A stretch of DNA of 64,000 nucleotides. Source: Verrucomicrobiia bacterium. GTDB lineage: Bacteria > Verrucomicrobiota > Verrucomicrobiia > Palsa-1439. The stretch covers positions 28,151 through 92,150 of the forward strand of contig JBEKZD010000011.1 in NCBI GenBank assembly GCA_049510215.1, given 5' to 3'. The notes beneath the pieces were generated by a model. The model did no database searches. It saw nothing but the letters and a program-made list of their open reading frames with translations, and was not told the origin of the DNA. Below are positions 853 to 41,300 of the stretch, piece after piece; position 1 is the first letter of the stretch, and each line of letters begins with the position of its first letter. The position numbers and the translations under genes were made by a program.

Positions 853-887
853 TGAAATCGGGATGATGGAACACTAGCGCGCTGACC
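853..887 (-). repeat. degenerate copy of metH 3'-terminal coding segment (compare 948-982)
   Basis: gtgaaatcgggatgatggaacactagcgcgctgac vs gtgcaatcgggatgatgaaacaccagcgcgctgac inside metH end; about 90% identity, same orientation, 60 bp apart. Confidence 0.5.
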
Positions 888-916
888 CCGAAAAGGATTC
901 GGGGCAAGCGCTTTCT

Positions 917-3900
917 TCATTCCGTCGCCTCGCCAACTCCAAAGTACGTGCAATCGGGATGATGAAACACCAGCGCGCTGACGCTAGCTTCCGGATCCAT
1001 CATGAAACCTTCGGTCAATTGCACGCCGATTTCTTCCGGTTTGAGTAGCTTCCAGATGCCGGCTTGATCTTCGAGCGCCGGACAGGCGGGGTAGCCGAAG
1101 CTGTAGCGGTGGCCCCGGTATTTCGTCGTGAACCGGTCGATCATCGTCATGTCGGCGGGATCGGGGAAACCCCAATCTTCGCGGATATGACGGTGCAACC
1201 ATTCGGCGGCGGCCTCGGCGGTTTCGAGCGCGAGCGCCTGTAAAGCGTGCGATTTCAGGTATTCTCCGCGCGCTTTGTATTCTTCGGCCCGTTCGCGGAT
1301 GCCGGTGCCGGCGGAGACGACAAACAGGGCGAGCGAATCACGTAACAGGCGAGACGCCTGCGCAACTGGCGGAAGAACGTAGTCGGACAGGCACAGGCCG
1401 TCTGGTTTGCGCTGGCGGTGGAAGGCGAAGGTGTGAAGTAGCGCGGGCGTCCCGCCCGTTTCTTTGGCGCTACCGGAAGAACTGAACGGGCGAGACGCCC
1501 GCGCTACTTGATAAACCTTGATCGAGTTTCCATCCGCTTCCGCATCAAAATACTGCCACACGGCTTTGACCTTCATGAATTTTAACGCTTCACTCTTCAA
1601 CTCTTCAACCGCCGCCGCCAGCTCCAGCGCTTTCGGATCGCGGGCAGCGAGCGCCTTCTCGAAGTTGGATTTGAATCCGAGATGCCGGACATACAACATC
1701 TGTGGGTTGATGTAGCTCCAGATCTCCTGCAGCTGCGGCACGTCGCGCACTTTGCGGTCCGGGTAGGGCGGCGGAATCGGCGGAAGATCAATGCGAACAC
1801 GACTGCTGCGTTGGGTGGATTCGGGAAAGTCGACGGCGGCAGGCCCGGTCGCGACAGGAATGTCGCTCCCACGATGCTCTTCCATGACTTTGTCCCGTTC
1901 CGCGGGGTCGGTGAGACGGTTCATGATCGAGAGGCCGGTCATGGCGTCTTTGCAATAAATGACCACCCGCTCATAGCTCGGGGCGATGCGCGTCCGGGTA
2001 AACTTGTCACTCAGCGCCGCGCCGCCGACCAGCAATGGGACGGTGATACCGGCCTGTTTGAGATCGCCCGCGGTGATGGCCATTTGTTGCGCGCTCTTCA
2101 CGAGCAGACCACTCAAGCCGATGACGTCGGGCTTGTGTTCCTTGTACGCCTTGATCAATTCCTCCGGCGGCACCTTGATGCCGAGGTTGATGACCTTGTA
2201 ACCGTTGTTCGAGAGAATGATCTCGACGAGGTTCTTGCCGATGTCGTGCACGTCGCCTTTGACGGTGGCGAGGATGACCTTGCCCTTGGTCGAATCGGCT
2301 TTCTTCTCCATAAAGTTTTCGAGATGCGCGACGGCGGCCTTCATCGCCTCGGCGCTTTGCAGCACCTCGGCGACGATCAACTCGTTGGCGTTGAACAGGC
2401 GCCCGACCTCCTTCATCCCGTTCATGAGCGGGCCGTTGATGATGTCGAGTGGCGCGGCGCCTTCCTTGAGCTTCAGATCGAGGTCGGCGATCAAGCCTTC
2501 CTTCGTGCCTTCGAGGATGTAGTTGGCGAGGCGGCCGTCGAGAGGCAGGTCGGACGTCTTCTTCTTCACGCGGCTTTCGGCGGTGCGGAAATGCTCGTTG
2601 ACAGCGGCGATGTGATGCTGGTTGATCGCGGCCCGCTGTTCCTTCGTCTGCCGACGATAATCGCGCGGTGCATCTAATCCTTCGTGTGGATGATTCCATA
2701 GCAAATCCTCGACGAGTTTCTTTTCCGCGTCGGGGATGGTGGCGTACCGCTCCAGCTTCTCGGCGTTGACGATGGCAAGATCGAGTCCCGCTTTGGTGCA
2801 GTGGTAGAGAAACACCGAGTTGATCACCTCGCGCGCGGCCGGCGGCAGACCGAAGCTGACGTTGCTGACGCCCAGCACGGTCTTGCTCCGCGGCAATGCT
2901 TCCTTGATCAGCCGCACGCCCTCGATTGTCTCGACGGCGCTGCCGATGTAGTTCTCGTCGCCCGTCGCGCAAGGGAACACCAGCGCGTCGAAAATCAGGT
3001 CTTCTTCGGGAATCCCGTGTTCGGTGCAATACTTGTGGGCGCGCTGGGCGATGGCCAGTTTCCGTTCCCGGGTGATGGCCTGCGCCTGCTGTTTGTCCTC
3101 GTCGATCGAACCAATGACCACCGCTGCGCCGTACTTTTTCAGCAACGGCAGCACCTTGTGGAATTTCTCTTCGCCGTCCTCGAAGTTGATCGAGTTGATG
3201 ATGCTCTTGCCGAGGCAATAAGTCAGGGCCCGCTCGACGGCTCGCGGGTTCGTCGAATCGATCATCAACGGCACTTTGACCTTGTGAATCACCTTCTCAT
3301 AAAAGCGGTCGATGTCGGCCAGTTCGTCGCGGTCGGTGTTTTCCAGGTTGATGTCGATGATGTGCGCGCCGCTCTTGACCTGCGCGCGGGCGATCTCGGC
3401 CGCCTCCTCGAATTTCTCGTCCGTGATCAGCTTCTTGAACGCGCGCGAGCCGACCTCGTTGGTGCGTTCGCCGACGAGCAGGGGACGGTTGTCGTCGGTC
3501 GCCTCGACCAATTCGATGCCGGTGTAGTACGACTTGCGCGGCGCGCGGAATCTCCTCGGCGCCTTGCCTTCCACCATCTGCGCAATGGCTTTGACGTGGG
3601 CGGGCGTCGTACCACAGCAGCCGCCGACGATGTTGAGCCAGCCATTCTTGACGAACCGCTCCAAGGACGAAGCCAGCGATGTCGGCGTTTCGAGATACAA
3701 ACCTTCCTCGTTCGGCAACCCGGCATTCGGGTAACACGACACGCGCGTGTTGGCCATCTGGTGAATAGTGCGGATGTGATCGGTCATGAATTCAGGGCCG
3801 GTCGCGCAATTCAACCCGATGCTGAGCAAGTCGACGTGCTGCAGAGACGCGACGAATGCATCCGCGGCCTGGCCTGCGAGCATCGTGCCCGTCGGTTCGA

Positions 3901-40122: not shown

Positions 40123-41204
40123 AAGCCCAGCACCCTCCTGATTTCGGCTTCGTCCGTGAGACTGCGCCGCACCAACTCACGGGCAGCAGTTTCCAATAAC
40201 TCCAACGGCGTGACCGCTGCGGCTCCGTTTGCCTGCAGGCGGGAGCGCAGCGATTCATCCACTCTGACCCATTCCACCAACGGCACGCGGCCTTTGTAGC
40301 CCGTTCGCAAACAACTCTCGCAGCCTTCGCCCCGGCAAATGTCGCAAACACGCCTGACCAGCCGCTGGTTCAGCACCAGACCAAGCACCGACACCACGGC
40401 GAAACGGTCGGGGCACATCACCAGCAATCGCTCAACGACGCCGCGACACGAGCCGGCGTGCAGCGTTGTGATCACGAGGTGACCCGTCAGCGCGGCGCGC
40501 ACAGCGATGTTGGCGGTTTCCTCGTCGCGGATTTCGCCGATGACCAGCACCTGCGGGTCCTGCCGCAGAAGATGCCGGGCGGCTTTTGAAAACGTCAGCC
40601 CGCGCGCTTCGTTGACCTCCGTCTGCATGACGTTGGGAATGATCTGCTCGACGGGATCTTCGACTGTGATGATGTGCCGCGAGCCGGACTCGGCAAGGTG
40701 GCGCAGACAGGCGTAGATGGTTGTCGTCTTGCCACTGCCGGCCGGTCCGGTCAGAAGCAGGAGGCCGGCGCTCTGGCGGAGGAACGTCTCCAATTCAGCG
40801 CGGGCCGGTTCGGGGAAATTCAGTTCACGCAGCGACGGCGTGCCCGTCGTGGTGAACAGCCGCAGCACAATTTTTTCACCGGTCACGGTCGGGTAGGTGG
40901 CGACGCGGATGTCTTGTTGCGCGCCGACATCGGCCTTGTCGATCCGGCCATCCTGCGGAAGCGAATCCTGATACGTCTTCAGCCGCGCTAGGAATTTGAT
41001 CCGACCGAAAACGCGTTCAGCCGTTTCCTTGGGCAGGCTCGTGACAGGGGTGACGATTCCGTCGAGGCGAAAGGAAACCTCTGCTGATTCGCCGCGCATC
41101 TGCAGATGGATGTCGCTGGCGCAGACCGACTCGGCCTGCTGAATCAGGTCGTCTAACAACTTTGGAGCGACGACTTCCGACACGAGCCGATTGTAGCGTT
41201 TCAT
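40119..41204 (-). CDS. short GspE/PilB-family secretion ATPase (361 aa, lacks N-terminal domains)
   Basis: Walker A LLLTGPAGSGKTTT; Asp/His boxes ITVEDPVEQ, LVIGEIRDEETA, LTGHLVITTLH; C-terminal CxxC. Confidence 0.8.
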   Translation of the reverse strand: MKRYNRLVSEVVAPKLLDDLIQQAESVCASDIHLQMRGESAEVSFRLDGIVTPVTSLPKETAERVFGRIKFLARLKTYQDSLPQDGRIDKADVGAQQDIRVATYPTVTGEKIVLRLFTTTGTPSLRELNFPEPARAELETFLRQSAGLLLLTGPAGSGKTTTIYACLRHLAESGSRHIITVEDPVEQIIPNVMQTEVNEARGLTFSKAARHLLRQDPQVLVIGEIRDEETANIAVRAALTGHLVITTLHAGSCRGVVERLLVMCPDRFAVVSVLGLVLNQRLVRRVCDICRGEGCESCLRTGYKGRVPLVEWVRVDESLRSRLQANGAAAVTPLELLETAARELVRRSLTDEAEIRRVLGL

Positions 41205-41235
41205 TTTGGAAAAGCAAGCTTACTCTTGCGGAGGC

Positions 41236-41300
41236 GACACATCGCCGAGGTCACCAGCAATCGCGGCGTCGTCGAAGGCAAACGCGAACCCCTTATCGAG
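41236..41300 (+). repeat. degenerate duplicate of clpX 3'-terminal coding segment
   Basis: acatcgccgaggtcaccagcaatcgcggcgtcgtcgaaggcaaacgcgaacccc vs clpX 36592-36658; about 88% identity; encodes [21 protein letters not shown]. Confidence 0.7.

Follow-up and report, generated by a model that had tools for sequence, protein, structure and literature searches.

The 64,000-nucleotide stretch analyzed here (below, the window; positions 28,151 to 92,150 of contig JBEKZD010000011.1, GenBank assembly GCA_049510215.1) comes from a peat bacterium of the Verrucomicrobiia, and in it the ends of five genes occur twice, the second copy being short, degenerate, nearby and in the same orientation. The genes are metH (pair a), a gene for a repeat protein with a YYRIRL tail (pair b), smpB (pair c), an epimerase gene (pair d) and clpX (pair e). 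The original prediction, made from the letters of the window, took these repeats for attL/attR sites of elements that integrate at gene ends and re-supply the terminus, or for traces of the imprecise loss of such elements. On balance, we favor another interpretation, in which the repeats are displaced gene termini, the scars of homology-anchored recombination of laterally acquired alleles, either by homology-facilitated illegitimate recombination (HFIR) or by integration of circles. The common denominator of the cases is an intact, or once-intact, gene, an insert of a few bases to kilobases, and a displaced resident terminus, with no recombinase; the recombination pathway itself is what we infer from these sequence remains.

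The sequence of events would be as follows. Incoming DNA would carry its own diverged copy of the end of a resident gene, and recombination would be anchored in that gene, the other end of the donor being joined illegitimately (HFIR), or else the DNA would be a circle that integrates by a single crossover. The incoming copy would complete the gene, and the resident end beyond the illegitimate joint would move downstream and decay; a duplication would arise when that joint falls inside the donor-homologous region. A donor piece ending just past the stop codon would leave nothing bracketed, as in pairs a and b, a piece with genes would leave a bracketed cassette, as in pairs d and e, and the mirror-image event at a 5' end would give pair c.

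Five pairs of gene ends

Self-BLAST of the window and repeat finding recovered all five pairs at the positions predicted for them; all are direct, and their E-values, from 2.5e-8 to 9e-27, are far beyond chance.

Pair a: 846-886 and 942-982, direct, 90% identity over 41 nt, E 2.5e-8
Pair b: 27312-27350 and 27385-27423, direct, 82% over 39 nt (repeat family D14)
Pair c: 22061-22180 and 24830-24949, direct, 82% over 120 nt, E 9e-27
Pair d: 27498-27615 and 30019-30136, direct, 80% over 118 nt, E 5e-23
Pair e: 36589-36653 and 41234-41297, direct, 91% over 65 nt, E 1.5e-17

Independent Illumina assemblies from other samples (L081 and L082) match the window at 100% identity, so the pairs are not assembly artefacts; these assemblies and the E-values together rule out chance and assembly error. 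The five-pair arrangement is the same in every contig of the population that was read, and no presence/absence variants were seen at the pairs among the population assemblies looked up. Relatives were gathered with trigger factor as an anchor, with an additional scan for Nramp. Nucleotide identity to the window is about 88% for L092 and L093, about 82% for L095 and L096, and about 78-86% for L098 and L099; L183, L184, L001 and L002 are more distant. The backbone gene order of the clade is LptD-UGDH-(PIG-L)-epimerase-[variable]-tig-clpP-clpX-[variable]-MFS-hisH-hisA-UvrD. Differences in presence of the bracketed segments, proposed earlier as a sign of mobility, do exist in the deeper relatives, whereas L092 and all population assemblies carry the same fragments. 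The events are therefore ancient and fixed, and none of the five pairs is currently mobile.

Short degenerate direct repeats are not rare as such: at E<1e-8, there are about 3.6 of them per 100 kb in the other loci that were fetched, versus about 5 per 100 kb in this clade. What is peculiar here is their nature as orphan gene termini. They are two-copy, non-palindromic and coding-derived, unlike repetitive extragenic palindromic (REP) sequences or miniature inverted-repeat transposable elements, which are defined by a palindromic unit in many copies. Between the copies, the ratio of nonsynonymous to synonymous differences (pN/pS) is 0.24 in pair a, 0.28 in b, 0.34 in c, 0.84 in d and 0.44 in e, the differences in a, b and c being mainly synonymous. 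On small numbers of sites, the copies of a, b, c and e resemble alleles whose divergence took place under functional constraint; the signal is clear in the metH copies of L193 (below).

The displaced terminus of clpX (pair e) lies behind a cassette of secretion-related genes, which resemble those of type II secretion systems (T2SS) and type IV pili (T4P).

36589-36683, + strand: functional 3' end of clpX (35397-36683)
36684-41233, - strand: T2SS/T4P-like cassette, with T2SSE (40119-41204), two T2SSF and pseudopilin-like genes
41234-41300, + strand: orphan clpX 3' fragment, orthologous to a longer orphan in L092 (17925-18019)

The predicted bracketing is borne out in this case. The 4.5-kb cassette follows clpX in the window, in L092 and in L098/L099, and is absent from the clpX-to-MFS interval of L183 and L184; single-copy clpX termini are seen in these two genomes and in L001, and in the window it is the proximal copy that completes clpX. 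The orphans of the window and of L092 are orthologous and have the same left junction; the one in L092 reaches exactly the clpX stop codon, where the similarity ends. At sites with derived states in the functional copies of the cassette-bearing clade, both orphans keep the states of the outgroups (L001 and L183). In this pair, as in pair d, the original terminus is the distal copy, which has been displaced. A complete T2SS/T4P gene set is found elsewhere in the window, after UvrD (51102-62096; GspE with MshEN, GspF, G, H, PilM/N and secretin), and the cassette after clpX is a divergent partial paralogue of it (40455-40601 to 52293-52439, 70%).

The epimerase pair (d) has the same layout, with no epimerase gene attached.

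27498-27615, + strand: left copy of the epimerase 3' end, open frame, no epimerase body upstream
27616-30018, + strand: bracketed segment with a PEP-CTERM protein (27661-28386), unassigned open reading frames (ORFs) and a protein with a prepilin motif (29074-29802)
30019-30136, + strand: right copy, which is the original 3' end of the epimerase gene; it has two TGA codons in frame and leads directly into the ancestral region upstream of Nramp

In L001 and L002 a full-length epimerase gene with a single 3' end adjoins Nramp, and in L183 and L184 the intact gene, likewise with no second 3' end, is followed by other genes. L092 has an intact epimerase gene, then an insert of about 620 nt with a 146-aa ORF, and then an orphan copy of the last ~129 nt of the gene (79% identity). 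The right copy in the window aligns onward into the Nramp upstream region of L001 and L002, which identifies it as the original terminus; it contains stop codons and has evolved neutrally (pN/pS 0.84). The duplication is common to the window and L092, and the cargo differs. An insertion at a gene end, as predicted, is thus supported by empty sites in all four distant relatives, but neither copy in the window is joined to an epimerase body or completes a gene. Pair d is an old insertion with terminal duplication, after which the gene body was lost or relocated in this lineage. A quartet reading of the four epimerase copies was rejected for conflict between sites, two to four of which favor the within-genome pairs and two the orthologous orphans.

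Most labels given earlier to the genes at these pairs were correct (PEP-CTERM, ClpX, MetH, T2SSE/F and the methyltransferase). Two labels in the insert of pair d were not supported: the presumed transposase remnant has zero Pfam matches even at E<=1, and the sole match of the presumed DUF1559 gene (29074-29802) is the N_methyl prepilin motif. A third, smpB, is dealt with below.

Next to the right epimerase copy, an Nramp/MgtE-like gene pair (30215-32855) has 72-89% protein identity to homologs in Planctomycetota, Gemmatimonadota and other phyla, in a different context in each, and looks like a widely transferred metal-transport cassette. The block downstream of MgtE (33069-33190), considered as a further epimerase orphan, was rejected as such; it lies upstream of tig, consists of a terminator hairpin and a promoter-like element, and is conserved throughout the clade. 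L183 has this block in duplicate (7019-7125 and 7249-7356, 94% identity) around a 123-nt insert with a perfect palindrome.

At metH (pair a), the orphan follows the gene almost immediately.

942-982, - strand: functional copy, metH codons for VSALVFHHPDCTYF
886-904, - strand: hairpin CCCCGAA-TCCTT-TTCGGGG between the metH stop and the orphan, kept in L193
846-886, - strand: orphan metH 3' end, VSALVFHHPDFTYFRLGELSD..., pN/pS 0.24 to the functional copy

The metH gene (917-4534) ends in GVGEATE and a stop codon at 917, and its functional tail, TYFGVGEATE before the stop, is canonical in the clade. The orphan begins 30 nt past the stop codon, beyond the hairpin; only 55 nt lie between the copies, and the period of the repeat is 96 nt. 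The last ~12 codons of a convergent Mrr ORF (52-846) are the antisense strand of this orphan.

The order of stop codon, hairpin and orphan is homologous to the order c2-hairpin-s2 in L193 (JGI 3300054984 Ga0556610_000892), a metagenomic contig that was reached by a search with the MetH C-terminal region. Within 21 kb of this contig there are five metH 3' fragments in one orientation (3265-17246), which span residues 687-1205, 813-1205, 1183-1205, 687-1201 and 1162-1205, i.e. 23-519 codons, and are separated by opposite-strand cassettes that encode Big_7/FlgD_ig/DUF6345, pectinesterase and CHAP proteins. Neither a recombinase nor a metH body was seen in these 21 kb. The three long copies differ by dS of 0.73-0.85, yet dN/dS between them is 0.12-0.15; they diverged while working, presumably in different genomes, and not as local duplicates in decay.

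Repeats of a separate, REP-like family also occur in the window. This palindromic family, with the core GTAGCGCGGGCGTCTCGCCC, is found in intergenic DNA (4660-4728 and 14699-14803) and in frame within metH (1335-1367 and 1436-1509), where the two copies lie inside two variable loops of the MetH activation domain, at which relatives have a gap or other inserts. A further copy lies 3' of clpX in L095. In their presence within coding DNA, these elements are like the Rickettsia palindromic elements.

Pair b is, like pair a, almost tandem.

27312-27378, + strand: functional tail ending in ATNMPARYYRIRLSSPMPPDP and stop, the end of the repeat protein encoded at 25117-27378
27385-27433, + strand: orphan tail ATKRPARCYRIRLIP and stop, which retains the family ending RLxP-stop

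The ending RLxP-stop is canonical and recurs in the paralogues at 11732 and 14482; an insertion of 18 nt sets the functional copy apart. The distance between the copies is 34 nt, and the period 73 nt. With only 55 and 34 nt between the copies, no cassette is bracketed by pair a or b, and in neither is there significant similarity past the coding tail.

Pair c differs in being derived from a 5' end.

24695-24946, - strand: right copy, in all assemblies a pseudogene that covers only codons 1-84 of smpB and has a +1 frameshift within a run of A
24531-24689, - strand: rpoZ codons 21-72 and stop, fused directly downstream of smpB codon 84, with the joint at CATCG (24683-24687)
22265-24445, + strand: membrane spermidine-synthase-like methyltransferase (Pfam), bracketed by the pair
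22055-22192, - strand: left copy, smpB codons 1-42, divergent from the methyltransferase

In relatives, rpoZ is followed by smpB, and the pentamer CATCG can be found in each of the parental genes (smpB in L100, rpoZ in L102). The smpB84/rpoZ21 joint is an illegitimate, microhomology-mediated junction over 5 nt; of the joints, this is the one with parental sequences to compare. A fragment that starts in rpoZ and ends in smpB may have been joined illegitimately into the resident smpB at codon 84, with truncation occurring later. In L104, an intact smpB lies natively beside the methyltransferase gene, divergent from it exactly as the left copy in the window, and the methyltransferase is therefore not a cassette inserted in smpB; a metagenome scan with the methyltransferase gave no close relative of this region besides L104. 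Thus the repeats do flank the methyltransferase gene, as had been predicted, but not by insertion into smpB, and what had been called smpB is an smpB/rpoZ fusion; of the longer repeats, it is those of pairs d and e that bracket cassette-like insertions. Intact smpB and rpoZ are absent from the window, which has fragments only (22055-24946), as does every assembly that was read (24 contigs). Functional smpB and rpoZ must lie elsewhere in the genome or be missing. The copies of pair c keep pN/pS of 0.34, although neither is now functional.

Comparable footprints are seen in unrelated genomes. The one in L042, from Planctomycetota, is fresh: a 147-nt repeat with one mismatch (99.3% identity), made of the last 118 nt of an ABC permease gene and 26 nt of downstream DNA, lies on both sides of a 4.7-kb Nramp-MgtE cassette, in which there is also an IS4/5-family element (4770-9800). 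L014 provides a clean empty site for this insertion (8229-8348), to which the distal copy of L042 and the DNA following it align. The whole 4876-nt contig L041, from another metagenome-assembled genome, is a circular permutation of the L042 repeat and cassette. It is the sole hint of a circular intermediate, and may represent a true circle, a tandem arrangement or a loop made in assembly. The same design is found in L019, at a gene for a cupredoxin-like protein. In L142, a homolog of the methyltransferase lies between an orphaned 5' end and the intact copy of a galE-like gene (745-1304 and 4634-5024, 90% identity over 155 nt), which is the design of pair c in an unrelated genome. Bracketing gene-end repeats are not enriched near Nramp: among 67 loci, true gene-end duplications are found only in L042 and L019 (the 36-nt pair in L008 aside), the candidates in L021 and L022 being non-coding motifs and that in L018 a repeat family.

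Competing explanations

Several observations weigh against displacement by recombination with acquired alleles. The functional clpX 3' end does not stand out as foreign: there are 3 ingroup-specific sites in its last 100 nt against a mean of 1.3, a density that is not significant, and a foreign origin of this segment was rejected on that ground. Pair d bears no signature of selection (pN/pS 0.84), and its two copies share lineage-specific states in each genome, which fits in-situ duplication or gene conversion equally well. The pN/pS expected for an in-situ duplicate is about 0.55 and not 1, and the contrast with it is weak for a, b and e taken singly, since these have few sites. The left epimerase copy in the window has no gene body and the downstream smpB copy is truncated, so that extra rearrangements must be assumed. 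A trans-acting recombinase may be encoded elsewhere in the genome, and the HFIR or circle model would presuppose a host competent for DNA uptake.

It is possible, but rather doubtful, that the gene ends of metH, clpX, the epimerase and smpB were targets of site-specific integration by elements with a gene-end-like attP, whose integrases were lost or act in trans. The anatomy of pairs d and e, in the window and in L092, matches attL/attR with a displaced original terminus, and the relatives have empty sites. The same end was hit repeatedly, as seen in the metH array of L193 and at the epimerase, where the window and L092 differ in cargo; furthermore, both epimerase copies in the window begin at one codon, and the copies c1 and c3 of L193 both start at residue 687. 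On the other hand, a constant crossover core is not observed at either target. In L193, the metH fragments start at residues 687, 813, 1162 and 1183, and that of the window starts at about 1185; at the epimerase, the left edges of the repeat in L092 and in the window are 21 nt apart, that of L092 being the further left. Random illegitimate joints predict variable left boundaries of the orphans and a fixed att site does not, hence the range of 23-519 codons in orphan length at metH disfavors a fixed att core. Pairs a and b, with 55 and 34 nt between the copies, bracket next to nothing, and the polarity of pair c is wrong for re-supply of a 5' end, with the illegitimate smpB/rpoZ joint lying within the pair.

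The machinery and the usual targets of site-specific integration are also missing. As the original prediction stated, no integrase, recombinase or intact transposase is present in the bracketed segments, none being found by Pfam in the ORFs scanned across the 64-kb window or in the precomputed Pfam results for 12-51 kb; precomputed Pfam results for L092, L098 and L193, the inserts of relatives included, likewise have no recombinase. There are no tRNA or tmRNA genes and no Rfam families in the window, so such RNA genes were rejected as integration targets. Phage-borne surrogate termini were rejected as well, scans of viral contigs having returned one chance match to the clpX core and none to that of metH. 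Of the attL/attR proposal, then, the anatomy of pairs d and e, the empty sites and the metH array of L193 stand, and pairs a, b and c, the variable orphan lengths and the lack of a recombinase speak against it.

Also unlikely, in our view, is in-situ duplication of gene ends, by slippage, template switching or unequal exchange near terminator or REP-like hairpins, followed by decay of one copy and by unrelated insertions between the two. This explanation is at its strongest for pair d, with its neutral evolution, genome-specific states shared by the copies, and a duplication common to the window and L092 around different cargo. Pairs a and b are essentially tandem, with the periods given above and a hairpin in the spacer of a; the 94%-identical, 108-nt intergenic duplication around the palindrome-bearing 123-nt insert of L183 is of a similar kind; and the smpB84/rpoZ21 junction is formally the join point of a tandem duplication. 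However, in copies that were identical at birth and then decayed, one would not expect the surplus of synonymous differences seen in a, b and c, or dN/dS of about 0.13 as in L193. The lack of significant similarity past the coding tail in a and b means that these are not simple duplications of the S-X-S-X type, and the DNA bracketed by d and e is absent from outgroups, so that an insertion is needed anyway.

Retention of the orphans for a putative function, for example as antisense or 5'-UTR segments, is very improbable. The clpX orphan is situated upstream of the T2SS-like operon, which is on the opposite strand, and the smpB 5' copy in the promoter region of the divergent methyltransferase gene. 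The clpX orphan and the region upstream of T2SSE can be aligned between the window and L092, whereas the neighboring intergenic DNA cannot; a 20-nt core is identical in both clpX orphans and in clpX; and the metH order of stop codon, hairpin and orphan is kept between the window and L193. Yet the right epimerase orphan has stop codons and is neutral, L098 and L099 have kept the cassette but lack the clpX orphan, and no Rfam family matches. As for the template and variable repeats of a diversity-generating retroelement, whose signature is a nearby degenerate copy of a gene 3' end and which a bAvd-like gene at 47681-48049 might bring to mind, they are ruled out, together with the artefacts excluded above, by mismatches that are not adenine-specific in any pair, by the lack of a reverse transcriptase in any Pfam result, and by targets that are housekeeping genes.

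Other features of the window

Foreign composition of the cassettes was considered and rejected, their GC content of 0.56-0.62 being like that of the flanks; the only GC outliers in the window are the Mrr region (0.52) and 42-43 kb (0.48). At 43150-45421, N-terminal (45164-45421) and C-terminal (43150-43326) fragments of an MmeI-like protein flank an XhoI-type restriction-modification pair (43473-45151), and it appears that a type IIG gene was gutted and replaced by this pair. In L092, an MmeI_N remnant adjoins the epimerase orphan. Between hisH and hisA, a 33-nt inverted repeat (88% identity; 47650-47682 and 48029-48061) flanks a bAvd/23S-rRNA-IVP-like gene, which is found in the same place in L002 and L184 and not in L183.

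Known systems and biological meaning

Footprints of this kind are known; their repeated occurrence at ordinary genes in bacteria of the Planctomycetes-Verrucomicrobia-Chlamydiae (PVC) group is new, the metH array being the most striking instance. Displacement of C-termini has been described for Rhs tips (Jackson et al. 2009, PMC2935791), and that of effector-immunity modules in type VI secretion system (T6SS) effector arrays (Kirchberger et al. 2017, PMC5361080), and for both the same class of model, homology-anchored recombination by circular intermediates or HFIR, was proposed. There, as here, an intact gene is followed by same-orientation displaced 3' fragments between acquired genes, and there is no dedicated recombinase. 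The copies there are diverged alleles and not in-situ duplicates, and those described here may be so as well. Unlike Rhs and T6SS genes, the anchors here are metH, clpX, epimerase and smpB, i.e. housekeeping or ordinary genes rather than genes for polymorphic toxins; the displaced pieces play no part in toxicity or immunity, and one case is at a 5' end.

HFIR is documented experimentally in transformable bacteria, in laboratory transformation and conjugation (PMC3240628). It combines a one-sided homologous anchor with a microhomology joint, and in the present case it would be read only from scars in an uncultured Verrucomicrobium. Remnants of tycheposons and tRNA islands in Prochlorococcus have partial copies of the target between cargo genes, the integrase often being gone (bioRxiv 10.1101/2020.12.28.424599); their targets are tRNA and tmRNA genes, the att sites are about 40 nt long, and intact elements carry tyrosine recombinases. 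These islands are likewise additive, with successive insertions pushing older ones outward; the footprints described here differ in having protein-gene targets, widely varying fragment lengths and no recombinase seen. The H47 island of E. coli is small, flanked by direct repeats, has no recombinase of its own and is excised by host functions (PMC5426353); its repeats are short extended att-like sequences, whereas those described here are gene termini.

Prophage e14 and phage 21 reportedly integrate at the 3' end of icd and supply a surrogate terminus (Campbell 1992). The likeness lies in a functional gene that would be completed by element-borne sequence, as at clpX and at the epimerase of L092, a degenerate original terminus at the far end, and empty sites in relatives; here, in contrast to the icd prophages, integrase and phage genes are absent, the position of the core is not fixed, and two of the pairs bracket almost nothing.

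A broader proposition, which we put forward tentatively and consider unlikely, is that cassettes without an integrase become serially mobile in PVC-group bacteria by using the ends of conserved genes as portable homology anchors. If this were true, an end-flanked cassette could loop out as a circle and re-enter, by a single crossover, any genome with that gene. Islands like the metH-3' array of L193 would then grow additively, and cargo like Nramp-MgtE would be carried across phyla.

There are also consequences for annotation. Orphan gene ends inflate gene calls, as seen in the 76-aa 'epimerase' ORF, the 99-102-aa 'SmpB' and many 'MetH' proteins of 250-520 aa in databases, and they can mask the loss or relocation of essential genes, the window being without intact smpB, rpoZ and epimerase genes. 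The scars also record the order of insertions. One-sided, homology-anchored gene import is known mostly from laboratory transformation and from toxin loci; if the interpretation favored here is right, the displaced termini would be natural evidence of such import in uncultured Verrucomicrobia and Planctomycetes, without the machinery of mobile elements.

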